Part shown: in pieces, positions 26,431 to 50,186 of the stretch
Position numbering within the stretch: the first letter of the stretch is position 1
Layout of the letters: every line of letters begins with the position of its first letter
IMG/VR virus record: IMGVR_UViG_3300042396_000723
Location: 32,185-96,184 of that record
Strand: one strand, 5' to 3'
Length of the DNA: 64,000 bases
Origin: a virus
Translations under genes and position numbers: made by a program
Notes under the pieces: generated by a model
Databases searched by the model: none
Told to the model about the DNA's origin: nothing
What the model saw: the letters and a program-made list of their open reading frames with translations, nothing else

Positions 26431-26432
26431 TT

Positions 26433-26537: not shown

Positions 26538-26542
26538 AATCA

Positions 26543-26573: not shown

Positions 26574-26575
26574 GA

Positions 26576-27265
26576 TTATCTGATAATCGTTAACGTCGTA
26601 GTCTCTGGCAACTTCACCCACGGATAAACGATCCGCCAAACATCGTGACTATAAATATTTTTCGTCATGTACCGGGCGTCGGGAACTTGTTTAATCTCTA
26701 TCCCCATCTTAATACTCATCGCTTTGAGAGGTCGCCAACTGAAGTTAGACTCATGAACTTTATTGAACTTGGCAACCCTGATGATTGACGAATAATCAAA
26801 AAGTTCATCCAAAGCCTCGGACAGTTGATTGTTTTCTTCCTCAAGCAGTGCTTTCTCGGCCTCTAACTTTTCTACCTCTAACGCCAATCGTCCAGCCTCT
26901 AGCAAAGCCTGAGCATAGGTTTGTGGTAACGCAAGCGGGGTCTGAACGTGGTTATTCTTAGCAAGGGAGAAAGCCTCAACTAACCGTTCTTTGCAATCCA
27001 AAACCTGATCACTGTTTCGGGAAAACGTCATCAAAAGTGTTGCTTGTGCTTCATTCAAGAAACAGTAAGAGACTTCGTAAGCCCCACCCTGCGGGCGTCT
27101 CACCACGTCCGTTTTAAACGCGACTGGTGTTTTTCGTTCTAATCGGTCTAAATACTTTGTGATTGTTTGCAGTAAGTTCTTATGTTGAATCCCCAGTTCA
27201 TCAGCAATCAATCGGGAATCGACAACTAAGGTGTCATTCTGTGTGGTAATGTCAAGAATAGCCAT
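26576..27265 (-). CDS. phage regulatory protein, Rha-family N-domain with antirepressor-type C-domain
   Basis: N-terminus LVVDSRLIADELGIQHKNLLQTITKY resembles the Rha family; the C-terminal ~110 aa are about 60% identical to the C-terminus of ORF 49458-50186. Confidence 0.55.
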   Translation of the reverse strand: MAILDITTQNDTLVVDSRLIADELGIQHKNLLQTITKYLDRLERKTPVAFKTDVVRRPQGGAYEVSYCFLNEAQATLLMTFSRNSDQVLDCKERLVEAFSLAKNNHVQTPLALPQTYAQALLEAGRLALEVEKLEAEKALLEEENNQLSEALDELFDYSSIIRVAKFNKVHESNFSWRPLKAMSIKMGIEIKQVPDARYMTKNIYSHDVWRIVYPWVKLPETTTLTIIR

Positions 27266-27420
27266 TGTTTACTCCGTATAAGTAAGTTGTGGTTAGACCC
27301 GTTCAAAAGCCAAAAACTTTTGGCGGGTTGCCTATTTATATTATAATACAAACCCAATATCTTCACCAATAAAAATAACCCAACAATTAATAAATCATCG
27401 GGTGTGTTGTCCAATTTTAA

Positions 27421-27852
27421 TCAGTGTGCATTATTATTATAGCACCCTATTTCATCATCAACCATTGCTGAAACCAAAGGTTTTCTTTCTGGAAATAAAT
27501 CTTTAATTGACCTGACAGCATCAATATAAGACTTACCGAGGTATGTTCCATTCTCTCCAAAACTAACAGGGATATCAGAAACCGCCCACCACCCAGACCG
27601 ACCTCTGAACTCAATATACCAATAACCATAGTTGGTATTTTCTCCCGTTGTTTGGGATATTAAATTATTTAATTGTTCTGTTTTTGTTTGCATTCGCAAC
27701 ATCATTTCCTCTCTAATTTTCCCTTGAAGTTCCCAGATATCTTTTTTTATAATGTCGTTCATCTGATTAGCTAATCTCATCTTGTACCCTGAATCCGTAG
27801 TAGCATTCTCGTACTCGGTTATTAAATTTTTTAATGCTTCCGTATCCATCAT
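27421..27852 (-). CDS. hypothetical protein
   Basis: 143 aa ORF in an AT-rich stretch. Confidence 0.35.
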   Translation of the reverse strand: MMDTEALKNLITEYENATTDSGYKMRLANQMNDIIKKDIWELQGKIREEMMLRMQTKTEQLNNLISQTTGENTNYGYWYIEFRGRSGWWAVSDIPVSFGENGTYLGKSYIDAVRSIKDLFPERKPLVSAMVDDEIGCYNNNAH

Positions 27853-28088
27853 CCCACCTCAAAAGTAACAACATTCCACTTCAATTCTACCTGTAATTCT
27901 ACCTGTAATTTTACCTGTTCTGATATCCATTTATCCATACACGAATTAATAAAAACAGGATAATCATTACGAGATTGTAGCCATTGTTTAGGATACTTAA
28001 CTTTCAATTCCTTAATCGTGAAAGTTTCCTCGGATACGGTAACTTCACGATCCAATGCAATCAGTTTAATTTTAGTTGAATTATTCAT
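27849..28088 (-). CDS. hypothetical small protein
   Basis: 79 aa ORF; 4-nt overlap with the downstream gene. Confidence 0.3.
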   Translation of the reverse strand: MNNSTKIKLIALDREVTVSEETFTIKELKVKYPKQWLQSRNDYPVFINSCMDKWISEQVKLQVELQVELKWNVVTFEVG

Positions 28089-28160
28089 GATAAAAAGGGA
28101 CTGGGTTGTGTTGGTGTTGCATTAAATACAATCTAATGCCCTCCCGTGCAAGAGATTGTC

Positions 28161-28607
28161 TCAGGTTTGATTGCCGTCGTTAGTGTTTGAATTACTTGCA
28201 TTGGTAGATACCCCTTTTAGCTTCTTTATTATTGCAATAGCTTTTTGATGTTCTGAAGCTAAGTGTTGATATTTTTCTTGAATGTTTACTAATTGTTCAG
28301 AAAAATTAGAGTTAGTTTTCTCCTGTAGCGCGGCTATCTTTTCCCTGAGTTCGTTGTTTTCAACCTCAAGCCTGTTTAAATCATTCTCCCTATAATTAGC
28401 CTCCCTCTGAAGGCTTTTAATTTCACTTTGTAATTCAACTATAACCTTGATGTTTTTGGTATCAAAAATTCTATTGATAGCAATACCAATTACACTACTA
28501 CCACCCAACAGAACGGTAATCAAACCAAATACTGATTGAATCGTTTGGTCTGTAGTAGCTGTTGTTGTATTTGATTGGAGAATAACATGAAAAAAAGACA
28601 TCAACAT
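28161..28607 (-). CDS. membrane-anchored coiled-coil protein
   Basis: 148 aa; hydrophobic segment VFGLITVLLGGSSVIGIAI followed by a heptad-like region (LQREANYRENDLNRLEVENNELREKIAALQEK). Confidence 0.35.
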   Translation of the reverse strand: MLMSFFHVILQSNTTTATTDQTIQSVFGLITVLLGGSSVIGIAINRIFDTKNIKVIVELQSEIKSLQREANYRENDLNRLEVENNELREKIAALQEKTNSNFSEQLVNIQEKYQHLASEHQKAIAIIKKLKGVSTNASNSNTNDGNQT

Positions 28608-28624
28608 TTTGATTACGAGGGTAA

Positions 28625-29155
28625 TTAACTTTTGTAGGCATATTTAATTGATAACATAATCTCTGCAAGCATTGAAGAAAACACCCCGCAAGCTAAGGAA
28701 GATATACTGCCATTTTGCTTGATTCCTACAGACAAAAAGAAAACTACTATAAACAATACTGAAAGGATGTGGCAGATATTTAAAAGAATATAGCAAGCAG
28801 TCCAAACAGAGGAGCTAATTTCACTACTAAACTCTTTCTTGAACTTGTAGACGAAACACCAACAAATTATCCCGCCAATCCCCACCCCAAGGGTGATAGC
28901 GTTTAAAAAATCAATACTCTCATTTATCCATCTAATAGATGTTTCTAATGGGGTAAAAATCATTCCAAACAATCCGACCAGAATCATCACCAGGAAATGA
29001 TGATTAAAAAATAATGCCTGAACTATATATTTAATTCTAAAAACAGGGCGTGGCATATTGCAATATTTACCCCCTCTTTCTAAAATCGTAAGACTCACCC
29101 TCTTTTTTTCGCTCTTTGAGTTTTTTGCTACGTTCATAGTGATGCCCCAATACAA
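28625..29155 (-). CDS. multi-pass membrane protein
   Basis: 176 aa with at least four hydrophobic segments; very AT-rich coding sequence. Confidence 0.35.
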   Translation of the reverse strand: MYWGITMNVAKNSKSEKKRVSLTILERGGKYCNMPRPVFRIKYIVQALFFNHHFLVMILVGLFGMIFTPLETSIRWINESIDFLNAITLGVGIGGIICWCFVYKFKKEFSSEISSSVWTACYILLNICHILSVLFIVVFFLSVGIKQNGSISSLACGVFSSMLAEIMLSIKYAYKS

Positions 29156-29426
29156 GGAAAAGCGATAAAAAACTTATAATAATTTGAATTATTAAAGTTG
29201 ATATTTTCATATTATCAAACTTGTCATAACCTATCTTGTTAAAGCTGTCAAACAATAACATCAATCCGTTATTTATCAACAGAGTAGATGACAAGTATTG
29301 ATTCAACTTTCGGTTATCAAATATCAAGGAAAATCCATTAATAATAGAAATCAGTCCGGCAAAGAAAAGCAAGAAGGCATAACCGGACTGGTTGAAAGGG
29401 AGCGAAAAAATTGATATTGATATCAT
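29067..29426 (-). CDS. membrane protein
   Basis: 119 aa with hydrophobic segments; 3' end overlaps ORF 28625-29155, so gene boundaries are uncertain. Confidence 0.3.
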   Translation of the reverse strand: MISISIFSLPFNQSGYAFLLFFAGLISIINGFSLIFDNRKLNQYLSSTLLINNGLMLLFDSFNKIGYDKFDNMKISTLIIQIIISFLSLFLVLGHHYERSKKLKERKKEGESYDFRKRG

Positions 29427-29746
29427 TCTATTGGTGTTAATGGGTTGTTTTTTGACGCTTCAATTGCTGCTTTTCTGGTGGCTATTATTCCCATTGCCTC
29501 TGTAACCAGTGCAATTTTTATCCACTCCATCTTTTCGGAAAATCCTGGATATTTAGTCTCTAATTCATTGGGTGTTCCCAAATTCAAAATACCTTCACCT
29601 GGACTTGTCCCCAAAACTTCTCCAGTCTCAAGATTGACAATCGAATATTGGTGGCACAGTTCAATTACAACATCCAATAAAATCCCACTCACAGGAATCT
29701 GTTGGCTTTGTAATACAAAAAAATGGTCTTTTTTCTCAATAGTCAT
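29423..29746 (-). CDS. hypothetical protein
   Basis: 107 aa ORF directly downstream of the tail-fiber-like gene. Confidence 0.3.
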   Translation of the reverse strand: MTIEKKDHFFVLQSQQIPVSGILLDVVIELCHQYSIVNLETGEVLGTSPGEGILNLGTPNELETKYPGFSEKMEWIKIALVTEAMGIIATRKAAIEASKNNPLTPIE

Positions 29747-29750
29747 GATT

Positions 29751-31874
29751 TTATGCCGTGTAAATTATTGTTATTTTAACTGGTTTTGATAAAATATTTT
29801 CGCTATTTGTTGGATGATTTATTATTTGTATGTCCGCCACTGACACGGACACGGAAAAATGAAGACCAACAAACTGTGTATCATATCCAGACAATACAAA
29901 CGCGTTTGCGCTGAATTCCACTAATACTGTGACGGATACAATTTTTGAAACCGTAACTCCATGAGCTATTAATGCAACCCCCCCTTCAGTTGCAGCCGTA
30001 GTCCCCGTCAAAACTTTAATCTTAATCCCTGGATGATTAGCGTCCCCACCTAAAGAACTGAAACCACCAACATATTGATTTCCTCCAATCCCCTGTCCCC
30101 CAGGAATTACACTAGCTCCCGTGGTGGGAGATGTTGAAGGTGTTGTGGAATTAGTTGATATCACACCTCTTAGGTAGGTATTGGTGATACTTGAATCACC
30201 AATTGTTACGGTGTTTGAGCCGTTACCGGTGGCGTTAAAACAAAATACGTTTTCGTTGGTTGCGTTCTGGGTTCCTTTTGTATTTGCGCCAAAAAAACAA
30301 GAGTTATTTGAGATAGTTAGACCTGTAACGCCGTCAGAAGTGAAGCGTCCTGCACCAACTCCAAAACCTGCCAAATTACTCCCTGTTATATTGCTGAAAA
30401 GCGCACCAACTCCAGAGGCAGTTAAATTATTCCCTGTAGTGTTATTTTCTAAAGCCCCAACGCCAAAAGCAGACGAATTATTCCCTGTAGTATTAGAACG
30501 AAGCGCATTAAGTCCAGCGGCAGTTAAACTACTCCCTGTAATATTGGACAAAAGCGCACTAACTCCAACTGCCGTTGAATAATTCCCTGTGGTGTTATTT
30601 TGTAAAGCCCCAGTTCCAAAACCTGCCAGGCCAATACCTGTGGTATTGGCCTGGAGCACACTAACTCCTGTTATTGTATTTGTGTCTAAACTCCCCCCTC
30701 CTCTCCCAATAGGAATCAAATTATAAGAATTGGCACTAACAGTACCAGCAAAAATAGCACCCGTAACCCCTAAACTAGCGACCCTTAAAGCCCCTGTAGT
30801 TGTTGATGTTGATTGGGTTGATAGGGGAATATGAAATCTCGAACTATCAACAGAGAAATAAGTAGTCGCACCATCTCCCCAGGATTGAATCCCTGTCGAT
30901 ATATCTCTCTCCCACCACGTTCTAGTGGTACTCAGGGGAATGTTAAAGGAAGCATCAACAGCTATCCCGTTATGAAAACTGGTTGTATTCCAGTCTACAC
31001 CATTAGCTTTCCGACAAAGCCAAGTTCTTTCTGTTATTATGTTTCCTGATGCCCCTGTTTTTGAAGATAAAACTTGAAAATCTCCAGATGTACTACCGAG
31101 AGGAGACCCTTGATATAGACTAACTCCTGCACCTAAAGAACCTATTATGTTTCCGTTTACTGCTAGATTCCCCGTGATAGTCCCACCCGCCAATGAAAGA
31201 TAGGAATTAATATCAATTGAATAAGTCCCATCCCCTGTTTTCTTTAGGAATCCTGGGGTGTCGGATAGCGATTGAATAGCAATTAATTCGTTGCCGATAC
31301 TGTTAGTTGAAACCGCAGTTACTTGACCCTTAGCATTGACAGTAATAGCAGGAATTGAACTAGCACTACCGAAAGAACCAGCATTACTATTGACCGTTGC
31401 CAGTGTTATCGCACTTGTAACATTGGCTGAACCATCAAAAGATACTGAATAACTAGCATCCCCCGTTGTTGTAATTGTCCGTGGCGTGGTTAGTTTTAAA
31501 GCCTCTCCCGCAGTAGCAGAACTCGATATCTCAACATAAACAGAACCCGACCATCGGTAAACTTTATTAGTCGTTTCATCAACGTAAATCTTTCCAGTTT
31601 CACCCGTACCTGGGAACCCGGCAAGGTTTGTATAACTCAGGACATCATCAACATAAGACGGTAAAAGCCCAGATGAAATTGTGCCAGACGCGGCGTTTAA
31701 ACTTGTTAAAACTTCGTTACCAGTAGACGCGATCGCACCAACATCAGACGCGGTTAAACTAATCTGAGCTTTAGGAACCTTGGTATTTGAATCCAAGGTA
31801 GCCACACCATTAGCCATTGCTTTCTCTAATTGCAAAACAATCAAAGAATAATCAATATCCGAAAACATTCCCAT
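29751..31874 (-). CDS. tail fiber / receptor-binding protein candidate with tandem Gly/Thr/Asn-rich repeats
   Basis: 707 aa, extremely rich in G/S/T/N/A; contains successive ~19-aa repeats (NTTGNxxTAxGVGALxSNxTGS); typical of phage fibre/spike proteins. Confidence 0.5.
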   Translation of the reverse strand: MGMFSDIDYSLIVLQLEKAMANGVATLDSNTKVPKAQISLTASDVGAIASTGNEVLTSLNAASGTISSGLLPSYVDDVLSYTNLAGFPGTGETGKIYVDETTNKVYRWSGSVYVEISSSATAGEALKLTTPRTITTTGDASYSVSFDGSANVTSAITLATVNSNAGSFGSASSIPAITVNAKGQVTAVSTNSIGNELIAIQSLSDTPGFLKKTGDGTYSIDINSYLSLAGGTITGNLAVNGNIIGSLGAGVSLYQGSPLGSTSGDFQVLSSKTGASGNIITERTWLCRKANGVDWNTTSFHNGIAVDASFNIPLSTTRTWWERDISTGIQSWGDGATTYFSVDSSRFHIPLSTQSTSTTTGALRVASLGVTGAIFAGTVSANSYNLIPIGRGGGSLDTNTITGVSVLQANTTGIGLAGFGTGALQNNTTGNYSTAVGVSALLSNITGSSLTAAGLNALRSNTTGNNSSAFGVGALENNTTGNNLTASGVGALFSNITGSNLAGFGVGAGRFTSDGVTGLTISNNSCFFGANTKGTQNATNENVFCFNATGNGSNTVTIGDSSITNTYLRGVISTNSTTPSTSPTTGASVIPGGQGIGGNQYVGGFSSLGGDANHPGIKIKVLTGTTAATEGGVALIAHGVTVSKIVSVTVLVEFSANAFVLSGYDTQFVGLHFSVSVSVADIQIINHPTNSENILSKPVKITIIYTA
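30300..30660. repeat. in-frame ~57-bp tandem repeats inside the tail-fiber-like gene
   Basis: At least five consecutive degenerate ~57-bp units (e.g. ...GCACCAACTCCAGAGGCAGTTAAATTATTCCCTGTAGTG...) visible on both strands. Confidence 0.5.
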
Positions 31875-31875
31875 G

Positions 31876-32310
31876 TTAATATCCTCTTACTAATCGAACT
31901 GATTTACCACTAGGAATTACCAACTCAATAGCGGGGTATAGAACATTATTAATGGCCTCAAAGTTTAGATTTTCACCGGATGAAAATGTTAATCCATTAA
32001 TAGTTACATCCCCTACGAGTACCTTTAAATAAATGAAATAACTACCAGTTGCAATTGTTGTATTTGTTGTTAGCAATCTACAATCTAACTCGGCGGTTAT
32101 TGTTGGTAAAGAGACTGGGACTCTACCACTTGATAAAGATGGAAGTTTGGCGTTGATCGCACCAAGTGTTGCTTCCGCAGATCCCCCGTCGTTTGAGATA
32201 GCACGATAAATCTCCCAGTAGGGAAGTGTCTGTGCCGGGTTCTCCAGGGCTTCTATTTGCTCTTTAATTAAAGCAGCCGCCTCCGTTTGCTGTGTACTAA
32301 TATCAGGCAT
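31876..32310 (-). CDS. hypothetical protein (tail module)
   Basis: 144 aa ORF between two large structural-type genes. Confidence 0.35.
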   Translation of the reverse strand: MPDISTQQTEAAALIKEQIEALENPAQTLPYWEIYRAISNDGGSAEATLGAINAKLPSLSSGRVPVSLPTITAELDCRLLTTNTTIATGSYFIYLKVLVGDVTINGLTFSSGENLNFEAINNVLYPAIELVIPSGKSVRLVRGY

Positions 32311-32415
32311 CTTTCAAAAATAGAAGGATTTATAATTAATTTTAACCCCTCTTTTATTGATTGCATTTTTAATTTAAGAAAATTCACCCTAGGACTAAAA
32401 GCATAATTTTTAAAA

Positions 32416-34143
32416 TTATCCCAAGACTAAGGCATATTTTTTAGCCGAGTTTTCAATAAAACTCAAAATATCAGAATCCATCTCTAAAATCCCTTGGTGA
32501 GAAATGGCTGTCACAGTGTTTGTGTAGTAATATGCGACTGTGATCAAATAATTCCCACTAGCGAAGCCTGAAGCCCCATTGACGGCAGCTACAGAGTTAA
32601 TTACAGGGCTGTACAATCCCAGTTCCGAATCAGGAACAGTAGTTGCCTCTCCTCCTGATCCAGTTAAGACAATAGTTTGAGTTGCTTCGCCTAGCTGCAC
32701 TGGAGTGCTAAACTTATTTCCCCCTATCCAGATCCATATATCTGTTGCATTGAAATTCCCTTTTGAATTTCCTGCAATAACATCAAGATAGTCGGATCTG
32801 ATATTTGTGGGATGCGTTAGTTTAATCTCTAATTGTTTTGAAGGGCTTAACGTTACACTCCCTGCCACAATTGCTTTTCCACAACCATTTAATGTCCCGA
32901 CTTTAGCCCTCAATACTTGACCTGTTCCTAACCCCGAAACTGCTAAACAAGTCCCATTCCCGTTAATGGCAACGATCTGATTGGCAGTGTTGGCAACTAA
33001 ACCAAATACCCCACGCTCTCCTGCTCCAATAAATGATCGCCCATTGACAATTCCCGATCCCGATAAGGCGATCGCGCTTAAACCCGTATCAGGGACAATT
33101 CGACGTAGATCCAACCCCGCACTAATTAAATTGCCAATGATTGCAGCCACACCCGAATAATAGCCAACACGCTCCCCGATTGATAGACTGACTTCTATCT
33201 GAGCATTCTCGGCTACCCTCCCCCCTAAACTTGCCACGTCAACCTGAATCTCCACAGCAACTAGATAGGCATATCCCGATAGCAAATCTTTTTCTAAAAT
33301 TAATCCCGAATTGTTGTTGGTATAAGTAATTCTTTGATTAATTCCCGTCATCTCCCCACCTCCAGAGGCGGAGGTATCCAGAGATCCATCGGTCAAGTTG
33401 ACGTATCCTAAAAATGTCAAATTGACCGCACCCGCACCAAAAAACAGATCAGTTAAGTCTGTATCCCCCCACGATATCCCTACTGATATGGATCTCCCCG
33501 CAAAATAGGGAGATGTCGTTTCGTTTCTTAGCCAAAATTTGACGGGCTCGGAATAACTTCTGTCAACTGCATAATCGGGACGGATAATAATTTCTTTTTG
33601 CTCATCTGTGAACTCAGAAAGCAACCTATCACAGCCGTTTACCGAACGAGTTGATGTAACTAAGGTTTGGAATTCTTGGGGATAAACCCTCAGCCACTGA
33701 CTGTCTTGCCATTCTCTGATTTCTCCCCATTCGTCAACGTAAACCCGCATCCCGTCGATTTTATTAACAGGGATTTGAGAGGTATTCGCTACGCTTTTTT
33801 GGGTAACGAAGTATTCATTTTTGTTAAGTGTTAGCGTCCCAGGTAAAGTATCTGAAGCTGAGTAAGTGGCTATAACATAAGCAGCTAAATAGGTATTTGT
33901 CGGGGAGAATGACAGCACATAGGAGACTGGATCATACCCCTCACAGTTACAGTTAGGCACAATTACAGTCACACCTTGACCCGTTGTTAAATTGATGGCG
34001 GTTGGAGGGGAATACAGGTTAAATCCTTGGCGGTTCCGCATCTGCCAATACAACGAACCCGAAACCGGAGTTGTTAAACTTCCCGAAATTACTGAGACAA
34101 CCGGAGCAGGAATTTGAGAGGGAATACCAGCGTAAGTCAGCAT
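32416..34143 (-). CDS. tail structural protein candidate
   Basis: 575 aa, rich in G/S/T/N/A; lies in a block of large structural-type genes. Confidence 0.4.
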   Translation of the reverse strand: MLTYAGIPSQIPAPVVSVISGSLTTPVSGSLYWQMRNRQGFNLYSPPTAINLTTGQGVTVIVPNCNCEGYDPVSYVLSFSPTNTYLAAYVIATYSASDTLPGTLTLNKNEYFVTQKSVANTSQIPVNKIDGMRVYVDEWGEIREWQDSQWLRVYPQEFQTLVTSTRSVNGCDRLLSEFTDEQKEIIIRPDYAVDRSYSEPVKFWLRNETTSPYFAGRSISVGISWGDTDLTDLFFGAGAVNLTFLGYVNLTDGSLDTSASGGGEMTGINQRITYTNNNSGLILEKDLLSGYAYLVAVEIQVDVASLGGRVAENAQIEVSLSIGERVGYYSGVAAIIGNLISAGLDLRRIVPDTGLSAIALSGSGIVNGRSFIGAGERGVFGLVANTANQIVAINGNGTCLAVSGLGTGQVLRAKVGTLNGCGKAIVAGSVTLSPSKQLEIKLTHPTNIRSDYLDVIAGNSKGNFNATDIWIWIGGNKFSTPVQLGEATQTIVLTGSGGEATTVPDSELGLYSPVINSVAAVNGASGFASGNYLITVAYYYTNTVTAISHQGILEMDSDILSFIENSAKKYALVLG

Positions 34144-34169
34144 ATTTTATTGTTTACCCTTGTACTCAT

Positions 34170-34376
34170 TTATCCTTGAATTACTTGCCATTTACCATTG
34201 TGTTTAAAGGCGATCGCATTCCCTGTAACCACACCTTTAGCTACAAAACTTTTACCCATCCCAGAGAATACAGATCCACTATTCCCCAGAGGGTAAGCCT
34301 TGCCAATTAACACTGATTTGTTAAGAGCGTTTAATCGACTTAAAGCCTGAGATGCGATTTGATTTACCGTCGCCAT
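34170..34376 (-). CDS. hypothetical small protein
   Basis: 68 aa ORF between two large structural genes. Confidence 0.25.
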   Translation of the reverse strand: MATVNQIASQALSRLNALNKSVLIGKAYPLGNSGSVFSGMGKSFVAKGVVTGNAIAFKHNGKWQVIQG

Positions 34377-34537
34377 GCTACTGATTCCCTTAACGTTCTG
34401 GTTCGGTTTGTTGCTCTTACAGTTTTCCCTCCATATCTGCCCGTGATGGAACTTCCTGAAATATTCCAGGTTGGCTGTCCACTGCTTAATATTCTTAAAA
34501 GTTTGGCTGCTAATTCTCTTTCTTTTGGGGACGACAT

Positions 34538-36904: not shown

Positions 36905-36908
36905 AATA

Positions 36909-37628: not shown

Positions 37629-37659
37629 AAAAAATTAATTTAACTACTAATATTATCCC

Positions 37660-38076: not shown

Positions 38077-38077
38077 T

Positions 38078-39682: not shown

Positions 39683-39774
39683 CTATCTTCCCCGTATAAC
39701 CAATTGTGATTTTAATTTTTATCCTTCCCTTTGAAGATGGTCTAGTTGCTCTATTTAGAACAATTCTTTCCATA

Positions 39775-41742: not shown

Positions 41743-41813
41743 TATTATAATTATAATTATGCCTTAAACTCAAAGATAATTCCGCAAAAAAATACCAATA
41801 ACTTTATATAAAA

Positions 41814-43802
41814 ATGACCGCCCAATCATCCGAGACAACAAAAAAAGAAACCACCACAGAGATTGTGAATCGTTATAGAGAAGACTCTCGCGTCATGATG
41901 CAAGCGTTAGCGGAGAGTGCCGACGCAAGTTCGATGCGAAATCCTCTCCCTGTAACGGGAAGAATCCAGCCTTTCTCTCAACAGCAAGTAGAAAACTGTT
42001 TAGCAGACGCGATCTTAAAACGAATTGCATGGAGCCTTCCATCTTCGTCAACCCAAAAGATGTGGCAGTTATCCTTGGGGGATGACTTCTCTAGTAAGAC
42101 GGGTTCTAAATTAGTCCGAGATTATTATGCCTATCACGAAAGATTGAAAACCATATCACAATTTAGAAAAGCATTGCAGTTCTCTCGCTCTCATGGTGGG
42201 ACAGTTATTATTCTCAAGATTAACGATGGAAGACATTATTCCGAACCTGTTGATGAAGGCAAGATTAAATCAATCTCTGGGTTAATCGTTCGTCACCGAT
42301 GGCAAGTTGCTCCTTCGGTGAGAACGGCTGCTAGTATATTTGACCTTGATGACATTGAACATTATGAAATCCTAACAATTGACCAACAAATAAAACAAAA
42401 ATTACTATTTAACGGAACAAATTCCAAGCAGGATGATCGCCTGATTCATCGGTCAAGAATCCTCCGGTTTAATGGGGCATTAATGCCTGATGATTGGATG
42501 ATTTCCTATAACAATGGATGGGGATTGAGTGTCTTTGACGAGGTTTGGAAATATTATAAAAACTATACGAATGGACTCAATGCAGTAGGCGAATTAATTA
42601 AAACCCAATCAGTTCTACAGCATTCTTTTGAAGGACTGCGGGAACTGATGATGGCATCTGATGAAGAAAGTATCGCAGCTATTAAGCAAACCATGAAATC
42701 AATCCGACTAATGTTTGATCTATATGGCATGGTTCTCCACGACTCCCGTGAACAATTCAACTGGAATGCCCGCCCCGTCGTCGGGATGGATTCACTCGTG
42801 CAAGTACAGAAGGATGGGGTAACAGGAGCCTCTGGGATGCCTCACACGATAGTTTGGGGAGAAAGCCCTGGGGGTTTGGGGCGTGATGGCAAGGAGACCC
42901 AAATCAACTATGCTAACTCGGTGGCAGAGTACCAAGGAGAGAGCTTAGATCCTAGCGCAGCTATTCTTGATCGTTATATCTTCTTGGCTAAAGACGGCCC
43001 CACAAAAGGCAAAATCCCCGACAACTACCAGAGGCAGTACCCTTCTATCTTGAGGATGACCATCGAGGATCTCCGCTCTGGACGCTCATCTGATATTCAG
43101 GCATTGGCTTCAGGTATTCAAGCCGGATTCATCACGACAGATGAAGCTCGGACAGTGCCTTCTAACTCCGGTTGGTGGCCAGAGCTTAATCTTGATCAAA
43201 AAGCATGGGAAGAAGCCAGGAAAAAAGCAGAAGAACAAGCAAACTCCCTTGGTGGTTTTGATATGGGAGCATTAGGAGGAGAGGAAGTTGCCCCACCCAC
43301 TGAAGAACCCGTCGAAGAAGAATCTATAACTCAAATGGACAGTGCTGTTTACACCCCAATAAAGCGGGTTCTTAATTGGCACGGGCTATCAATTGGGGTC
43401 ACTCACGATAAAGGGGATCTTCGCTATAACAAAACGATGAAGGTAGGGTATGGGCATATTAGACGCAGCTATGGACACGCGGAGGACGCAAAAGCAATCG
43501 ACGTTTATATCAAAAATCCAAACTCACCTAGTCTCTGGAAGGTTCGGCAACTCAACACAACAACAGGGGAGATTGACGAAACAAAGTATTTCTTGGGTTT
43601 TGATTCCCCCAAAGAAGTGCGCGATTGCTATTACTATCATGCCGGATTAGATCGTTTTGGAGGAGTGGAGAAGTGCGATCCTACGGAATTAAACCAATAT
43701 CGCCAAGATGCAGAAGAATTGGAGGGAGTTAATGAAGTTTATCAAAATAAGATATTAACAGATGTAGCAAATAGAATCAATCAACAAACTCAATTAGATT
43801 AA
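41814..43802 (+). CDS. portal protein candidate
   Basis: 662 aa, first gene of the rightward head operon, divergent from the terminase operon; size and position fit a portal. No motif confirmed. Confidence 0.4.
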   Translation: MTAQSSETTKKETTTEIVNRYREDSRVMMQALAESADASSMRNPLPVTGRIQPFSQQQVENCLADAILKRIAWSLPSSSTQKMWQLSLGDDFSSKTGSKLVRDYYAYHERLKTISQFRKALQFSRSHGGTVIILKINDGRHYSEPVDEGKIKSISGLIVRHRWQVAPSVRTAASIFDLDDIEHYEILTIDQQIKQKLLFNGTNSKQDDRLIHRSRILRFNGALMPDDWMISYNNGWGLSVFDEVWKYYKNYTNGLNAVGELIKTQSVLQHSFEGLRELMMASDEESIAAIKQTMKSIRLMFDLYGMVLHDSREQFNWNARPVVGMDSLVQVQKDGVTGASGMPHTIVWGESPGGLGRDGKETQINYANSVAEYQGESLDPSAAILDRYIFLAKDGPTKGKIPDNYQRQYPSILRMTIEDLRSGRSSDIQALASGIQAGFITTDEARTVPSNSGWWPELNLDQKAWEEARKKAEEQANSLGGFDMGALGGEEVAPPTEEPVEEESITQMDSAVYTPIKRVLNWHGLSIGVTHDKGDLRYNKTMKVGYGHIRRSYGHAEDAKAIDVYIKNPNSPSLWKVRQLNTTTGEIDETKYFLGFDSPKEVRDCYYYHAGLDRFGGVEKCDPTELNQYRQDAEELEGVNEVYQNKILTDVANRINQQTQLD

Positions 43803-44047
43803 TTTTAAATTAATTGGTTTTTGAATGCAACTTAGTCAGCCCATTTTATTTCACTAGGGTTGGCTAAGTTGTCTAAACTGTTACATCAAATCTTTGTCAG
43901 TTCCTGATTTACGGGCTACGTAAATCTATGTATAGGTTAAGGTAGTTTGGCAACAATTGGCACTTCGGACAGTAAGGACACCCCAGACCCACTGCAACGG
44001 TCTGTCTCCCGCCTATTCACCAAGAAATCAATACAATAAAAAAGGTG

Positions 44048-44072
44048 TGATTTTCTTATATAGAAATTATTT
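44048..44072 (+). promoter_or_regulatory. conserved 25-bp element GATTTTCTTATATAGAAATTATTTT, copy 1
   Basis: Exact 25-bp identity with 51066-51090; lies 75 bp upstream of the ATG at 44147; contains a TATATAG core. Confidence 0.4.
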
Positions 44073-44146
44073 TATAAAGTCCCGTTGATCTATAAGAATT
44101 TAACCTTAAAATTATAGTAATAACTTCTGATCAGAAGGGTTTTATC

Positions 44147-44539
44147 ATGCCAATTCCTGTTAGTTTTTTCAAGATTACAAGAGCCGGAAAGGATTACGCC
44201 TTCAAGCCCGAAGACATCTCGTTTGGGGACGACGACACTCTTGAGGTTAAATTAAATCAAGGGGGAGATATAGCGGTCATCCCTCTTGTAAAAAAATCCG
44301 TGACATTAACAATTCAGGGTGCTGTTGACACTGATCTTGATACGTTTGAAACCGAGAGAACCCAAAATGTCCAAAACTTAATTGACAATCAGCCGGTTGG
44401 CGCAAACATGGCTTTTGCAAACTATATTATTTACAGTGCTTACTTGCGAAAAGTAACCCCCACTGCCCCAATTACCGTGTCAGGGAAGACCTTGTTTGAC
44501 ACAATTGAGTTAGAGTTTGCCTCTCGCGTTTACGTTTAA
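44147..44539 (+). CDS. hypothetical protein
   Basis: 130 aa ORF downstream of the conserved 25-bp element. Confidence 0.35.
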   Translation: MPIPVSFFKITRAGKDYAFKPEDISFGDDDTLEVKLNQGGDIAVIPLVKKSVTLTIQGAVDTDLDTFETERTQNVQNLIDNQPVGANMAFANYIIYSAYLRKVTPTAPITVSGKTLFDTIELEFASRVYV

Positions 44540-44589
44540 ATTTATACTGCCTAAGCCAATCAAGGTTTAGGTAGTAGCCCCTAAAATCT

Positions 44590-45555
44590 ATGTATAAAAA
44601 GATGACACCAACAGAAACTTCAGTAAAATTAGCGATTGCACAAGTCTTGTCAATGCCTTCTGTTTTTAACGCACCTCTTTACGTCTTGGATTTTAACATT
44701 GACGAAAAAGGGACGGTATCAGGAAGGTTTAGAGATGCTGCTAGACCCCGTGTATTTAGCTATGAGATTGCAGACGATGGAATAACCTTTAGTCCCTTTG
44801 TCCCTGGAAGAATGGATAGCAGTGACTGGAAAGTAGAAGACTGGGAGAAGTTTTCAGATGGCTATTCGTTTAGGATTGACGCAGGGATGCAAAAACGAAC
44901 CGACAAGCCAAAATGTAATCCGGCTGTTTCTTTTTCTTGTGGAAAGGCTTGTGTTAGTTTAAAAAAGAAATGCAAAACAGATCCTCAAGATCCGACTTCT
45001 GTAGCCAAGAAAGAAAAATTAAAAGCTGTTATTAAAGAGGTTACAGTTACCGACAAGACGAGCAAAATTAAAGTCAGTAAGGATAAATCTAGTAAGCCCA
45101 AAGCCAATAAATTGATCAATGACCTAGAACCCTTAGAGCCATTAAACACCTCTCGGACACCCACTGAAACCGTGTTACCTGAGCTAAGTTCTAACAATGT
45201 TGTTAAGGGTCTTGGTGGTAAAGTGGGCAGAGGAAAATATTCAGGCGATGCGGGTAGGGATTTTGAAGATACTGGCAAGATGATGAACTACCCACTAAAA
45301 AGCGTTGTAGCCACAAAGGACATGAAAGGGAAGGAAAAAGAAGTGGCAGACGTAGCAAAAATGTTGAAAGAATCCGAGAGAAATTGGCTCCCTGTTTATG
45401 TCAAAGAAGTTAGACCTTACGAGTATGAAGTTGTCGGAAATCATTTGACCCATGCAGCAGCAATAAAAGCAGGGTTTGAGAGGATTTGGACTATTCCGGT
45501 TGATTCAGATCCGGCTACTCTCAAACAGATTCAAATGTTAACAAACGGTAATTAA
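44590..45555 (+). CDS. modular family member A: conserved N-domain, 4-Cys linker, ParB/Srx-like C-terminus (tentative)
   Basis: N-domain (KLAIAQVLSMP...GRFRDAARPRVFSYEI...GYSFRIDA) and KPKCNPAVSFSCGKACVSLKKKCKTDPQD shared with the paralogs; C-terminus LPVYVKEV...YEVVGNHLTHAAAIKAGFERIWTIPV resembles ParB-like domains. Confidence 0.5.
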   Translation: MYKKMTPTETSVKLAIAQVLSMPSVFNAPLYVLDFNIDEKGTVSGRFRDAARPRVFSYEIADDGITFSPFVPGRMDSSDWKVEDWEKFSDGYSFRIDAGMQKRTDKPKCNPAVSFSCGKACVSLKKKCKTDPQDPTSVAKKEKLKAVIKEVTVTDKTSKIKVSKDKSSKPKANKLINDLEPLEPLNTSRTPTETVLPELSSNNVVKGLGGKVGRGKYSGDAGRDFEDTGKMMNYPLKSVVATKDMKGKEKEVADVAKMLKESERNWLPVYVKEVRPYEYEVVGNHLTHAAAIKAGFERIWTIPVDSDPATLKQIQMLTNGN

Positions 45556-45596
45556 TTCCTGTGTTTATTTTACAATCTTATAAATTAAGATTTGAT

Positions 45597-45672
45597 GCTC
45601 CGCCAACAGAAATCCAGGCGAAATTAGCGATCGCCAAAGTACATCTCAATATTGGTAGAAGTGAACTTAATT
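45597..45672 (+). pseudogene. decayed remnant of the family N-domain start
   Basis: One frame reads APPTEIQAKLAIAKVHLNIGRSELN then stop, matching the paralog N-domain opening (APTExQMKLxIAQxLSM...) but truncated. Confidence 0.35.
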
Positions 45673-45723
45673 AAGCAAAAACAAAGTACAATAGACTCAT
45701 CGCATTAAAAAGGAAAATCAATC

Positions 45724-45948
45724 ATGAAAGCTAAAAAAACTGCTGTTGAAGGACAGAAGAAAATTAAAACCGTTCCCCCTGCTGTTGTAGATGAAGATGA
45801 GGATGTTTTAGGGGAAGGGGAGACATTGCAGGAATTTGACAAGAGAATGGAGAAAAAATATCCGAAAAGAAGTTATGACGATTTGACAGAAGAAGAAAAA
45901 CGCGAACGTGCCAAACGTTTTGTAGCTCAAGGGCCGGAAGACTGGTAA
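45724..45948 (+). CDS. hypothetical small charged protein
   Basis: 74 aa, Lys/Glu-rich, between family members A and B. Confidence 0.3.
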   Translation: MKAKKTAVEGQKKIKTVPPAVVDEDEDVLGEGETLQEFDKRMEKKYPKRSYDDLTEEEKRERAKRFVAQGPEDW

Positions 45949-45997
45949 ACTCCCCAGCCCGCACCCGTACAAAAAAATTTAGTTTATCTCAAAAACA

Positions 45998-48900
45998 ATG
46001 GTCACAACCTTAAACCGTCAAAATCCCCGTCGCCTTGATGCTGCTCCTACGGAAGTGCAGATGAAACTTGGTATTTCTCAAGTTTTGTCGATGCCATTTG
46101 CCTACAACTCTCCGGTTATCGTTCTGGATTTTGAAGTAGGCAATAAAAACATCATCAAGGGACGGTTTAAGGATGCCATTAGATCCCGTGTTTTTGAGTT
46201 TGAGATTGGGGATTCTATCACGTTCAAGCCGTTCACCTGGAGGCGAACGGATAGCGACGTTGACCCGATGGCATGGGAAGACTTCTCTAAAGGGTATTGC
46301 TACCGATTCGATGCAGTCAAGACCGTCAGAAAGGAAAAACCTAAGTGTGGCAATACTTCTTATAACTGCGGTAAAGCCTGCATTGGCTTAAACAAGAATT
46401 GCAAATCAGATCCCCCCGATAAACCGTCCCAGGAGAAAGTTGATAAACTCAGAGCCGCGGCAGGGGAGTTTAAAGCTGTTCAGGGCGATCCAACCAAGAA
46501 GCAAGAGGATAATAAGTTAACGCCAAAACCACAGGAAGTTAAGGAAGTCGCGCCCACCCCCTCTCCCGATAAAGCAGAAGTCCCTGTCACCGACCTTGCT
46601 AAACAGCCACCTGTTGCCTTAAAAATTGGTAAAAAATCAGTCAACCTAAAAGACGACCTTGATTCCTACAAAGATTTAAGAATAACCGCCGATCCCGTTT
46701 TAGGTTGGCAAGTTATCAATAAGAATGGGAACGTACTGAGAGAACCGCCCAAGGGCAACACGGCTCCAAGTCATAGATTCAAGAAAAGAGAGCAGGCTGA
46801 AAAGTTTGCTAACGATGTGATGACACGGGTTGAGAAGTTGCAGAAGGCTCAACCAAAACCGGATGCTGATGTAAGTGACTCTGATAAAAGGTCATTTGAA
46901 AGTCTTTACACCACAAAATTATCATCCGCCCAACAGTTGCTTAACTTAGAAAAAAACGCAAAAATAGCGCGAATATCTCCCAGTGAAGATCAAAAAAATT
47001 ATGACAAAAAACAACCCGACCTCAATATTGATTCGGGGCCAGGAATAATGGAAGGTTGGAGGACTGCGAAACCAGACGGATCTGTCCAGGGAATCCCTTG
47101 GTCTGTCAAGGCGGAGGGTCAAGAAAAGTCACGGGCTATCGTGGGTGCTAGATTAACGGATCATCCAGCCAGCCCTAATTTAAAAAGACTCAGGTTATAC
47201 GACGCAGACGGACGTAATGAGACAATTGACTTCAAAAAGGGTGATAGAAACGCATCTCTTAGGGCTAGAAGACTTGTTAGAGAAATCGCACAAGGAAAGT
47301 CTCAAGAGATGGAATCTGGCGACATAAAAGCGTTGATTGAGGGAGGTAAAGAGGGTTTAGCTAAAAGAAAAGTGGAAAAGGCAAGATTAGCTGCTGAAGA
47401 CAAGCAATTTAAAGCAGCCTTAGATGATTATTTAAAATCAAAAAACCTAACAAGAGAAAGCATTAAAGGTTTGACCGATATCGGAATGGACGATCTTATC
47501 GAAAAAGTTGAGAAATACCAGAAATCACGATCTCAAACCCCCAATTCAGCAGGGGATAAGGGTGCGGGGGGTAAAACGTTTGACCTAAATGATTTATGGC
47601 GACAAACCGCCGACGCTGCTTATTCTAAAAACAAAGATGGTGTCTCAAAAAATCTTGAGCAATGGAAGGAAGTTGTAAAAAAATTAGAGTCAGGAGAAGG
47701 GATCTCTAAAGACGTTAACTTAAACGAATACGAAAAGTTAATGGATAATTTAGAAAAAAAATTAGTCCTCGATCCCAAAGATCCGTCTAATGTTGAATTT
47801 AAAAAGATTACGGGATCTATTTCTAAGATTCTTAGTAAAGCAGGCAGTCTCAACCCGTTAACACAAGAAGACCTAGAAAAAGCTCACCCTAACTTTAGAC
47901 CAATCATGCAACGAATTAATAAAACCGTTGCTAAGGATTATGAATTATTTGACAAAAAAGAGCGAGTTCAAAAAGAGTTAAATAGCCTAAAACAAGAAAA
48001 ATCTTATAACGAGGCTGTGATATTAAATAATTCAAAACGATTCCGAGAAATAGGTATTAATAATAACGAGGTAGAAATTCAAAGACTTTCCAAGAAAAAA
48101 CCGAGCGATTCAGTTGAGGTTAGAAATCCTGTCTCAAATTTACCAGAAAGGACTATTTCGGCATCCAAACGGATTAAGGAACTTCAAGATGAAATTGGGG
48201 AATTGAATAATAGTGAAAAAGCTAAAATAGAAGAAGACAGGGCTAGAAAAGAAATAGCCCGATTGCAAAGCCCAATGAAGGATGCAGAGAGTAGAATAAA
48301 CGCCATTTTAGACGAGAAGAAAAAATTAAGGGAATCTCGCGGCGGATCTAGTTCACAATCAGAACCCAAGCAAACCCCAAATTCAGTAGGGGTTGATGGT
48401 GCGGGGGGTAAATCAGTTGATCAACAATATAAGGATATAATTGCTAAGTCGAAAGATCCAAAGGGAACAGAGGAAGTTTTATCGTCAGCATTAAGAGGTG
48501 GGTTTGGTGACTTTGAAAGAAAAAATTATAACGAATATTCAACCGCTATAAAATCTGGGACTGTTCCAAAAGGAATGGGGAACTATTATCAAAAACAAGT
48601 CGACAAATATAAACCCATTATTGAGGCGGAAGATTTTATTAACGAAAGGAAGAAAAAAGCAATTAGTGGAGACTATGAAACAGAACAAGAAGCTGGGGTT
48701 TATGTTCTTAATAAATTAAAGCAAAAAGGCTACAAAGAACACGAATATTATGACAGTCCAGACTATGAAAAAGATTATGGAAAATTGGTGGGGGTAATGA
48801 AATCTGTTAAACTTCCTCCGCCGTTGTCTGGTATCGTCCCCGGTAAAGAATTAAAACAGACATTAACTCCGGGTGACAAACTACTTGTTAAAGAGGATAC

Positions 48901-49282
48901 TTATTCGTTAATGAGTAGTGGAAATACCCCTACTGGCTATCGAATAGTTGATGGTGGCGAAGTTTTAAAGGTTAATGTCAAGAATGTTAAAACCCGCGTT
49001 AGAGGCGAATACATGGGGAAACCCTACGAGAACGAGCCGTCTCTCGCTCTTGATAAAGTTACCCACGTCATCCGAGATGGTAAACGTTACAAGGTAGATG
49101 ATTCTGATAGATCCCCCAATGACTTAAAGTCGGAATCCTCCAAATCCCAGAAAGCAGTAAAACAAAAGGCAGTAAAACAGAAAGCAATAAAAGTTCAAGG
49201 GGAGCGATCGCAAAAACAAGAATCCCCTCTAATTCCGAAAGAGGAAATAGTTAAAGATGCTCCAATACTGATGTTAAGGTAA
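45998..49282 (+). CDS. modular family member B: N-domain, 4-Cys linker, long Lys/Glu-rich helical C-terminal region
   Basis: 1094 aa; N-domain and KPKCGNTSYNCGKACIGLNKNCKSDPPD shared with paralogs; C-terminal region has internal repeats (SAGDKGAGGKTFD / SVGVDGAGGKSVD; QKAVKQKAVKQKAIK). Confidence 0.5.
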   Translation: MVTTLNRQNPRRLDAAPTEVQMKLGISQVLSMPFAYNSPVIVLDFEVGNKNIIKGRFKDAIRSRVFEFEIGDSITFKPFTWRRTDSDVDPMAWEDFSKGYCYRFDAVKTVRKEKPKCGNTSYNCGKACIGLNKNCKSDPPDKPSQEKVDKLRAAAGEFKAVQGDPTKKQEDNKLTPKPQEVKEVAPTPSPDKAEVPVTDLAKQPPVALKIGKKSVNLKDDLDSYKDLRITADPVLGWQVINKNGNVLREPPKGNTAPSHRFKKREQAEKFANDVMTRVEKLQKAQPKPDADVSDSDKRSFESLYTTKLSSAQQLLNLEKNAKIARISPSEDQKNYDKKQPDLNIDSGPGIMEGWRTAKPDGSVQGIPWSVKAEGQEKSRAIVGARLTDHPASPNLKRLRLYDADGRNETIDFKKGDRNASLRARRLVREIAQGKSQEMESGDIKALIEGGKEGLAKRKVEKARLAAEDKQFKAALDDYLKSKNLTRESIKGLTDIGMDDLIEKVEKYQKSRSQTPNSAGDKGAGGKTFDLNDLWRQTADAAYSKNKDGVSKNLEQWKEVVKKLESGEGISKDVNLNEYEKLMDNLEKKLVLDPKDPSNVEFKKITGSISKILSKAGSLNPLTQEDLEKAHPNFRPIMQRINKTVAKDYELFDKKERVQKELNSLKQEKSYNEAVILNNSKRFREIGINNNEVEIQRLSKKKPSDSVEVRNPVSNLPERTISASKRIKELQDEIGELNNSEKAKIEEDRARKEIARLQSPMKDAESRINAILDEKKKLRESRGGSSSQSEPKQTPNSVGVDGAGGKSVDQQYKDIIAKSKDPKGTEEVLSSALRGGFGDFERKNYNEYSTAIKSGTVPKGMGNYYQKQVDKYKPIIEAEDFINERKKKAISGDYETEQEAGVYVLNKLKQKGYKEHEYYDSPDYEKDYGKLVGVMKSVKLPPPLSGIVPGKELKQTLTPGDKLLVKEDTYSLMSSGNTPTGYRIVDGGEVLKVNVKNVKTRVRGEYMGKPYENEPSLALDKVTHVIRDGKRYKVDDSDRSPNDLKSESSKSQKAVKQKAVKQKAIKVQGERSQKQESPLIPKEEIVKDAPILMLR

Positions 49283-49457
49283 CAGATAGAGATGGAATTA
49301 TTCTTGTGGAAGCCGAAGAAGTATAGAAAATTAACAATAAATTAGTGGTTTTGCTTCTGTTTTGCCCAAAATAAAACTGTTATAATTAATAATAACAAAC
49401 GCCTCTCGCGGTGCGCTAACACCCAGAGGCAGTAGATCCTATCCAAGAGGAACCACA

Positions 49458-50186
49458 ATGACTAATTTATCATTATTACCTGACGATATTCGTTCTGAAT
49501 TTTCCGTTAACGATCAAGGTCAGGCTTTTGCGAGTAGACGGGCGATCGCACGGTTGGCAGGCGTTTCTCATGTGTCCATCGGGAATCTATTGGATAAAAT
49601 CGCTGTTAACCTAGACCTCCCCGAAAGCATTGAAATCCTTGGAGGGCAGGACTTTGAGGGTGTTAACCTGATCCCTGATACCGTTGCCTCCCGGATTATT
49701 GAGTATTACGCTTTTGATGCTAAACGTTATTGCACAGAACAAGCCAAGCGAGTTTATAAAGCATTCGGGGCTATCGGGTTTCGGTCGTGGGTACAAACTG
49801 AATTAGGTTGGCAATATTCACAACCTAAGTTACCTCAGACTTATGCTGAGGCATTACTGGAGGCGGGACGGTTAGCGTTAGAAGTGGAGAAGTTGGAAGC
49901 CGAGAAAACATTGCTTGAGCAAGAGAATGGCGAACTCTCCAAAAATTTAGATGAGTTATTTGATTATTCCTCTATTGTTCGGATTGCCAAGTTTAACCAA
50001 ATCTCAGAGAAAATCTTTAACTGGCGGTTACTCAAGGCATTGAGTCTTAAAATGGGGTTAGAAATTAAAAAAGTCCCGTGTCCCAGGTTTGAGACAAAAA
50101 GCCTATATTCTCACGATGTCTGGCGTGTTGCTTATCCTGAAATGAAGCTACCAGAAACGACAACGCTAGTTATTAACAGAGGATAA
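49458..50186 (+). CDS. antirepressor-like protein, paralogous in its C-domain to the Rha-family gene at 26576-27265
   Basis: C-terminus PQTYAEALLEAGRLALEVEKLEAEK...YSHDVWRVAYPEMKLPETTTL is near-identical in pattern to 26576-27265; the N-terminal domain is different. Confidence 0.5.
   Translation: MTNLSLLPDDIRSEFSVNDQGQAFASRRAIARLAGVSHVSIGNLLDKIAVNLDLPESIEILGGQDFEGVNLIPDTVASRIIEYYAFDAKRYCTEQAKRVYKAFGAIGFRSWVQTELGWQYSQPKLPQTYAEALLEAGRLALEVEKLEAEKTLLEQENGELSKNLDELFDYSSIVRIAKFNQISEKIFNWRLLKALSLKMGLEIKKVPCPRFETKSLYSHDVWRVAYPEMKLPETTTLVINRG

Follow-up and report, generated by a model that had tools for sequence, protein, structure and literature searches.

Exchangeable heads on a shared leucine-zipper and tail module in two putative regulators of a PaV-LD-type cyanophage

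Viral regulators in which KilA-N, Bro-N, Rha, AntA, ORF6N and P22_AR_N domains are shuffled into combinatorial architectures were reportedly described by Iyer, Koonin and Aravind in 2002 (Genome Biol 3:research0012). C-terminal partners of such N-terminal domains, or heads, include ANT/KilA-C, ORF6C, P22_AR_C and ORF11CD3. Among Basilisk-like Bacillus phages, gp103 joins Rha to KilA-C_ANT, and phage Stills has a Bro-N head instead (PMC6145125, citing Iyer et al. 2002). Here we describe two open reading frames (ORFs), ORF A and ORF B, in a 64,000-nucleotide stretch of viral DNA (positions 32,185 to 96,184 of IMG/VR record IMGVR_UViG_3300042396_000723; below, the window). As far as its sequence tells, the window is the genome of a PaV-LD-type Planktothrix cyanophage, being 95-98% identical in DNA to Planktothrix phage PaV-LD (NC_016564, 95.3 kb; megablast) across the structural genes. 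ORF A and ORF B end in the same module, a leucine zipper followed by a conserved tail, which stands behind a different head in each, and at the ORF B locus the head has been swapped in place relative to PaV-LD-type phages. The two genes and their parts are the following.

26576..27265, minus strand: ORF A, 229 amino acids (aa), with Rha head, leucine zipper and conserved tail (ORF list, Pfam, PHROG)
26966..27223, minus strand: ORF A head, Rha DNA-binding domain, aa 15-100 (Pfam PF09669)
26798..26929, minus strand: ORF A zipper, aa 113-156, with Leu at each seventh residue five times and Asn at one core 'a' position
26579..26797, minus strand: ORF A tail, aa 157-229, a predicted small alpha/beta winged-helix-like globular domain with DELFDYSS at its start
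49458..50186, plus strand: ORF B, 242 aa, with a helix-turn-helix (HTH) head outside Pfam, leucine zipper and conserved tail (ORF list)
49830..49961, plus strand: ORF B zipper, aa 125-168, with the same a/d core residues as that of ORF A
49962..50183, plus strand: ORF B tail, aa 169-242

Both genes lie where a preliminary description of this DNA had placed them, in opposite orientation with 22.9 kb between the copies, and the C-terminal sharing it had proposed was borne out by pairwise alignment of protein and DNA. BLASTP of ORF A against ORF B aligned the C-terminal parts (94/150 identities, 63%, E 2e-62) and left the N-terminal parts unaligned. Starting at the LPQTYA motif, the two proteins share an ungapped module that runs to the C-terminus and comprises 117 aa, 85 of them identical (73%); the earlier estimate of about 110 aa at roughly 60% identity was right in kind but slightly conservative. 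At the DNA level, 246 of 351 positions agree (70%), with identities of 72, 86 and 52% at codon positions 1, 2 and 3. The proportion of nonsynonymous differences between the modules is low (pN 0.16) beside that of synonymous ones (pS 0.79, saturated), indicating that the copies have long been separate, under purifying selection and without gene conversion.

The zipper part of the module (module aa 1-44) is identical at 37 of 44 positions. In both proteins Leu occupies module positions 15, 22, 29, 36 and 43, giving five heptads, and the 'a' positions 12, 19, 26, 33 and 40 are A, V, K, N and L. AlphaFold2 models module residues 2-43 as a single long helix, and in ORF A as in ORF B the sequence pattern and the predicted continuous helix are those of a parallel dimeric leucine zipper. 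The tail part (module aa 45-117), from DELFDYSS onward, is identical at 48 of 73 positions and is modelled as a beta-helix-helix-beta-beta-helix fold, with a mean predicted local distance difference test score (pLDDT) of 85 for the whole module and above 84 for the tail. A similarity consisting of low-complexity coiled coil and nothing else, which would have undercut the proposal of a shared domain, is practically untenable: the helical part does give weak matches to bZIP, DivIC and geminin (Pfam, PDB), but the tail, which is not part of that helix, shares the identities just given, carries motifs conserved family-wide in 123 members (DELFDYSS, W..LK and YP...LPETTT) and is predicted to be folded.

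Searches of Pfam, NCBIfam and PADLOC found no family for the module and returned just weak coiled-coil noise, and a sequence and profile search of the PDB gave only coiled-coil matches (geminin, bZIP). PHROG 4936 ('transcriptional regulator') covers the globular part. A fold search of BFVD returned family members, with ORF14 of Anabaena phage A-4L at the top, and then non-significant MerR, Xis and HTH proteins, which is at most suggestive of a winged HTH. Among solved structures the nearest to the tail is NyxB, a secreted Brucella effector that binds a host protease (PDB 8af9; PMC9823007). The two are 11% identical with no match in the sequence-level PDB profile search, homology is unproven, and NyxB has neither a zipper nor a DNA-binding head; the 'orphan' fold of Nyx effectors in Brucella might conceivably descend from this phage tail. 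The idea that the tail is a duplicated copy of a head was rejected, all hhalign probabilities being below 5%.

The heads differ, as the preliminary description had stated. ORF A aa 15-100 match Phage_pRha (PF09669) with 48.4 bits, well above the gathering score of 29.9 (E 1.4e-12), which confirms the Rha-like assignment made earlier, and ORF B gave no match in the PF09669 search. The NCBIfam Rha subfamily TIGR02681 scored ORF A at 17.7 bits, below its cut-off of 45.95, so that ORF A is a Rha member at the Pfam level only; its PHROG matches are to Ant/Rha-type regulator families. For the ORF B head no Pfam or NCBIfam match was found. AlphaFold2, given an alignment of 12 homologues, modelled it with a pLDDT of 84. 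In PADLOC, ORF B aa 15-147 match a CRISPR-linked 'HTH' model (E 1.6e-14) and aa 69-129 match BstA within its N-terminal DNA-binding domain (E 5.2e-10; positions 94-152 of the 292 in the profile), and among the PHROGs ORF B matches phrog_6287, BstA. The BstA N-terminal domain is KilA-N-like and associated with DNA (PMC8585504). We conclude that the ORF B head is a MerR/DdrC-like HTH related to the BstA N-terminal domain and lies outside Pfam.

BstA, an abortive-infection protein, thus resembles ORF B in its two-domain layout with a KilA-N-like DNA-binding head at the N-terminus (PMC8585504). It differs in that ORF B shows no similarity to the C-terminal BstA domain (the PADLOC match covers part of the N-terminal domain only) and in that ORF A found no match in the PADLOC search, BstA included. 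Between the Rha cluster and the cluster of ORF B-type heads, hhalign gave a probability of 14%; both begin with strand-helix-turn-helix, and as compared here no relationship between them is demonstrable at any level. An ORF B-type head also occurs in a 210-aa protein from a Logan contig (P0187), on an unrelated C-terminus with a D...EVK motif reminiscent of PD-(D/E)xK nucleases. This occurrence on another chassis indicates that the head is an autonomous module.

The exchange of heads can be followed directly at the ORF B locus, where two intervals matter.

49371..49472, plus strand: conserved left flank of the head cassette, with extended -10, hairpin, ribosome-binding site and the first five codons
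49473..49815, plus strand: ORF B head cassette, not homologous to the KilA-N head found at the same locus in relatives

In PaV-LD, ORF064R ('KilA-like protein' or 'transcriptional regulator', YP_004957337) carries a KilA-N head on the module. It comes from the same phage lineage and its zipper and tail are near-identical to those of ORF B (114/117 identical aa), but a KilA-N head stands in place of the ORF B-type head. In five IMG/VR loci (L018-L021 and L037) the gene with the KilA-N head is the immediate upstream neighbour of the tail-completion (Phage_tail_S) gene, which is the position of ORF B; in PaV-LD, ORF064R and the tail-completion gene are separated by an extra block, ORF065R-068R. 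On the left of the cassette, window positions 49371-49472 share 84% identity with the sequence preceding the KilA-N-headed gene in L018 and L019, and positions 49373-49434 share 92% with the sequence in front of PaV-LD ORF068R. This flank contains the extended -10 sequence TGTTATAAT at 49378-49386 and a leader hairpin, GCCTCT...AGAGGC, at 49401-49430. In DNA alignments no similarity to the KilA-N-headed genes of the relatives was detectable over 49473-49815. Homology resumes at 49816, in the linker encoding SQPK-LPQTY.

The right-hand side of the exchange is composite. Against the DNA of PaV-LD ORF064R, the zipper is about 83% identical (approximately 82-92% in 50-nt bins over 49816-49965; pS 0.53), whereas the tail is approximately 100% identical from about 49950-49966, the DELFDYSS codons, to 50165 (pS 0.04). 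The jump in identity near 49950 indicates that recombination left another joint at the DELFDYSS motif, and the pattern as a whole indicates that the incoming piece carried both head and zipper. On the left, recombination resolved in the conserved leader; on the right, it did so at the motif that is best conserved throughout the family. An omega of 0.055 between ORF B and ORF064R points to purifying selection. As to the donor of the head cassette, an exact 30-mer was not found in IMG/VR, a protein-level scan yielded only a 27%-identical relative, and a word-based protein search gave two homologues. P0052, which a 1.2-kb contig encodes, is the closest full-length relative (72%).

The exact ORF B protein is present on at least 21 contigs from several samples and independent runs, which indicates that the mosaic of head and chassis is not an assembly artefact. 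Where neighbours are visible, the gene is flanked by the gene for a 1094-aa protein on one side and the Phage_tail_S gene on the other, and in the six listed ORF B contigs gene order is unchanged wherever flanking genes can be seen. One copy of the HIP1 octamer GCGATCGC, a cyanobacterial palindrome, lies inside the head cassette (about 49544).

An exhaustive hidden Markov model search with the module through 1.84 billion cluster representatives gave 531 matches at E <= 1e-3 and 220 at E <= 1e-10; an earlier word-seeded search had found 45 proteins. The module lies at or near the C-terminal end in 150 of the 150 listed matches out of 531, and most of these proteins have about 200-260 aa. Pfam annotation of 123 family members identified no family covering the module itself and placed in front of it Rha (36/123), Bro-N (20/123), AntA (17/123), KilA-N (13/123), ORF6N (2/123) and, in one member each, P22_AR_N (1/123, a distant member), T5orf172/MUG113 (1/123) and a helicase (1/123). 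When the heads of 187 members were clustered, four large groups emerged: Rha (59), AntA/Bro (52), KilA-N (36) and ORF B-type (29). The domain shuffling put forward in the preliminary description is therefore supported twice over, by the many heads found on this module and by the KilA-N head at the ORF B locus of PaV-LD-type relatives.

Close family members are found in the cyanophages PaV-LD and A-4L, at 56 loci on IMG/VR contigs and in a few metagenome-assembled genomes (MAGs) of cyanobacteria. Among species-representative genomes only five loci were found, in Crocosphaera, Kamptonema (two), an uncultured cyanobacterium and a Bacteroidota fragment, and the family thus resides mostly in phage and metagenome sequence. 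The A-4L protein, ORF14 (YP_009042784), has an ORF B-type head on a module 53% identical to that of ORF A, but it belongs to an unrelated podovirus, is encoded in the early region and is annotated as hypothetical. The Kamptonema sp. MAG SMAG_U10623 contains two members (L062 and L063), one with an AntA-type and one with an ORF B-type head, whose zippers are 90% and whose tails are 75% identical; like ORF A and ORF B, these are co-resident genes that mount different heads on a similar chassis.

With a recognised head and a module that recurs behind several heads, ORF A and ORF B fall among the regulators of the Iyer type, which they resemble in the set of N-terminal heads, the size of 200-250 aa, the occurrence in phages and prophages and the combinatorial build. 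They differ in that the zipper and the DELFDYSS tail are unmatched by the Pfam models searched, those of the C-terminal partners named above included, and that the ORF B head, too, is outside Pfam. The Bacillus pair gp103 and Stills is alike in the replacement of a head on a constant C-terminal domain between close phages, but there the C-terminus is ANT/KilA-C, which was not detected in the ORF A/B family, and the hosts are others. Head swapping in phage regulators is a textbook phenomenon; the present case adds an uncurated module, an uncurated head type and mapped junctions.

ORF A is itself a mosaic. Its zipper is nearest to those of the ORF B-locus genes (82%), whereas its tail is nearest to those of Rha-headed genes on other contigs (L016, 88%), the zippers of which are just 57% identical to that of ORF A. 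Two zipper variants, 'ALLEAGRLALE' (type I) and 'ALKALVAE' (type II), were each seen with all head types. Taken together, head, zipper and tail appear to be three reassorting modules. As for a match between the zippers of co-resident genes, the case of ORF A fits, but a Rha gene with type II and a KilA-N gene with type I from the same sample do not, and systematic matching of this kind is not established.

The identical ORF A protein occurs on 11 IMG/VR contigs. Around the gene, the following elements were recognised.

27266..27403, minus strand: upstream region of ORF A, with hairpin, TATAAT and leader inverted repeat (consensus scans)
26542..26565, no strand assigned: hairpin AACCCTCTAAATATTTAGAGGGTT between the convergent ORF A and a 62-aa ORF (terminator-like scan)

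Upstream, a terminator-like hairpin of the preceding gene (27403-27378) is followed by a perfect TATAAT (27345-27340), which may mark the ORF A promoter, and by the leader inverted repeat GCCAAAAGTTTTTGGC. The downstream hairpin AACCCTCTAAATATTTAGAGGGTT lies just past the stop codon and is likely a bidirectional terminator, so that ORF A is flanked on both sides by terminator-like hairpins. Both genes have promoter-like sequences of their own, those of ORF B (TGTTATAAT and the leader hairpin) sitting inside the structural block, and both look like stand-alone transcription units. Within the window the ORF B promoter and hairpin element is present as a single copy, no further one being found. 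Outside the window, a 72.5% copy of the promoter and leader (window 49378-49468) lies at PaV-LD 72088-72176, upstream of ORF099R-ORF100R ('anti-repressor'), and the shared element may be a regulatory element for such genes.

We consider it probable that ORF A and ORF B are separately transcribed, accessory modular DNA-binding regulators of the Rha/KilA-N/Bro-N/AntA 'antirepressor-like' kind, built from a constant chassis and heads exchangeable by recombination. Their DNA binding, dimerisation and regulatory role are inferred from sequence features. In this model the head would select the DNA site, the five-heptad zipper would most likely form a parallel dimer, and the tail, a basic alpha/beta winged-helix-like domain of about 75 aa, would most likely make a second contact with nucleic acid or a partner. 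Heads and zipper variants would be exchanged between related phages through conserved sequence on both sides, the left exchange site being the promoter, leader and first codons and the right one the linker together with the stretch that encodes DELFDYSS, where zipper and tail meet. Several points weigh against this interpretation. DNA binding and dimerisation are predictions from architecture, and the promoter and terminator assignments at both genes are consensus matches only. The location of ORF B inside a structural gene block is unusual for a regulator. The e and g positions of the zipper are mostly Glu, which could disfavour homodimers, and since the nearest solved structure to the tail is NyxB, the tail could bind protein and not DNA.

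Two other functions have to be set against that of a modular DNA-binding regulator. The proteins might be true antirepressors in the manner of P22 Ant, inactivating a CI-type repressor by binding to it, whether that repressor is the phage's own or belongs to a resident prophage, with the tail as the repressor-binding part. The same head types occur in known antirepressors, both PHROG matches named 'anti-repressor Ant' (phrog_63, phrog_373) and the protein-binding effector nearest to the tail in structure (PMC9823007) agree with this, and the preliminary description had used the term antirepressor-type. The family names do fit that term, but they are annotation and it is from them that the proposed role is drawn. 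Neither protein matches the P22_AR_N, P22_AR_C or ANT (KilA-C) models; for the latter (PF03374) neither ORF gave a match at E <= 1, nor did any of the 123 members at E <= 0.001. Both proteins, moreover, have predicted DNA-binding heads, and the phage lacks the integrase block of PaV-LD. An antirepressor function is thus unlikely. Also to be considered is BstA-type defence or superinfection exclusion, in which the head recognises replicating foreign phage DNA and the C-terminal part is the effector. The matches of the ORF B head to the BstA model, the CRISPR-linked HTH model and phrog_6287 speak for it, both genes look like accessory cassettes at variable positions, and rapid head swapping would fit an arms race. 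However, the BstA match is limited to the stretch of the profile given above, the C-terminal BstA domain is absent and ORF A has no PADLOC match; BstA is known from Gram-negative prophages (PMC8585504), and this element is without the integrase of PaV-LD. We regard a defence function as quite improbable.

A tentative extension of the regulator model, to which we give little weight, is that the chassis serves as a platform for hetero-oligomerisation, on which co-resident members with different heads pair through near-identical zippers. Doubtful as the pairings are, candidates would be ORF A with ORF B and the AntA-headed with the ORF B-type-headed protein of the Kamptonema MAG. The idea arises because it is the zipper of ORF A, and not its tail, that is closest to those of the ORF B locus, with an identical a/d core, and because the acidic e and g positions could disfavour homodimers. 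If it were true, heterodimers would read two DNA sites at once, allowing combinatorial control or bridging of the phage genome, and one head swap would rewire the circuit in a single step.

How the two genes came to share one genome bears on the word paralogs used in the preliminary description. A recent in-genome duplication, followed by divergence or replacement of the N-terminus, would account for the presence of both genes in one genome and for their zippers, which are 84% identical in aa and each other's closest type. But pS between the modules is 0.79, the ORF B tail is approximately 100% identical in DNA to that of PaV-LD ORF064R while ORF A shares only 70% with either of them, PaV-LD lacks the island in which ORF A lies, and the tail of ORF A groups with Rha-head genes of other contigs. 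Such an origin is very unlikely. The shared module is real, and what lacks support is duplication within this genome; ORF A and ORF B appear to be old family members that were acquired or assembled independently.

The same comparison bears on the suggestion that the two copies form an inverted repeat through which homologous recombination could invert the 23-kb segment between them. The copies are indeed inverted and 22.9 kb apart, and recombination joints do fall in the module between different phage genomes. Yet only 70% of their DNA positions agree, the longest stretch without a mismatch is 11 nt (TTTGATTATTC, inside DELFDYSS), and the pair went unreported in a repeat search seeded with 12 nt. 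RecA-type recombination needs far more identity than this. The saturated synonymous sites argue against gene conversion between the copies, and the window is collinear with PaV-LD over the interval. Each of the 11 IMG/VR contigs that carry ORF A runs unbroken across the gene, and the six listed ORF B contigs have parental flanks wherever these are visible; in this assembled sequence, PaV-LD included, no inverted arrangement was found. A recombinogenic repeat would have arms identical over tens of bp, or an invertase with its sites; arms of that kind are lacking here, and window ORFs were not scanned systematically for recombinases. Inversion through the modules is scarcely credible, and the suggestion is removed for the ORF A/B pair. 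The module does act as a recombination handle, but between genomes whose copies are much more similar.

The wider interest of these observations lies in a widespread uncurated C-terminal module (531 representatives, with close members mostly cyanobacterial or from cyanophages) and a recurrent head type, neither of which is in Pfam or NCBIfam; with both described, better annotation of PaV-LD-type and other cyanophages becomes possible. The in-place head swap between near-identical phages, with breakpoints located within a few nt, presents the promoter/leader and DELFDYSS as recombination handles. PaV-LD-like phages matter in the ecology of Planktothrix blooms, and their variable regulators are candidate strain-level markers.

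In whole-genome comparison, the order of the window is a circular permutation of PaV-LD and collinear with it in three blocks.

Window 30-12170: collinear with PaV-LD 83.6-94.3 kb
Window 14001-24940: collinear with PaV-LD 0.3-14.8 kb
Window 27328-63998: collinear with PaV-LD 22.0-59.7 kb

The HIP1 octamer occurs 24 times in the whole window, compared with 0.9 expected. Two segments of PaV-LD are absent from the window by the same comparison: the integrase block (PaV-LD 7865-11542), the corresponding window site of which is 21263-21553, and an island (PaV-LD 14789-22015) corresponding to window 24940-27328. The missing island contains a methyltransferase, HicAB and PIN toxin-antitoxin genes, a GNAT gene, an ABC protein and a Ser/Thr kinase/phosphatase pair; at its site the window has 2.4 kb of different small genes instead, the last of which is ORF A. 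The 62-aa ORF convergent with ORF A (26349-26537, plus strand) matches Zn_ribbon_IS1595 (Pfam, E 5.8e-5) and the transposase family phrog_1191, and may be an insertion-sequence remnant in the variable island. An Rfam scan of the window gave no match.

Several further features of the window were noted in and beyond the structural genes around ORF B. Five tandem paralogous ORFs at 55941-63401 have repeated DNA segments in common (families D1-D4), each with a Cys-rich motif such as KKPQCVKPTAYNCG.ACI. A related motif, KPKCG..SYNCGKACI, is found in a 321-aa ORF (44590-45555) and in the 1094-aa ORF next to ORF B (45998-49282), both of which match phrog_16619 'minor head protein'. These ORFs form an expanded family of virion-associated proteins that is diversifying rapidly. 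The counterpart of the 1094-aa ORF in PaV-LD is ORF061R, relative to which it contains an insertion of about 790 nt related to ORF065R; a 50-nt direct repeat flanks this insertion at 47534 and 48371 (84% identical). In PaV-LD there are instead two large genes, separate from each other, and a 'minor head protein' comes after each. Finally, an identical 25-mer, GATTTTCTTATATAGAAATTATTTT, occurs in intergenic positions at 44049-44073 and 51066-51090, with a 76% copy at 51122-51150. Of the two identical copies, one precedes a 130-aa ORF (at 44147) and the other the gene for the head-maturation protease (at 51161), and the 25-mer is a candidate for a shared late promoter or operator.

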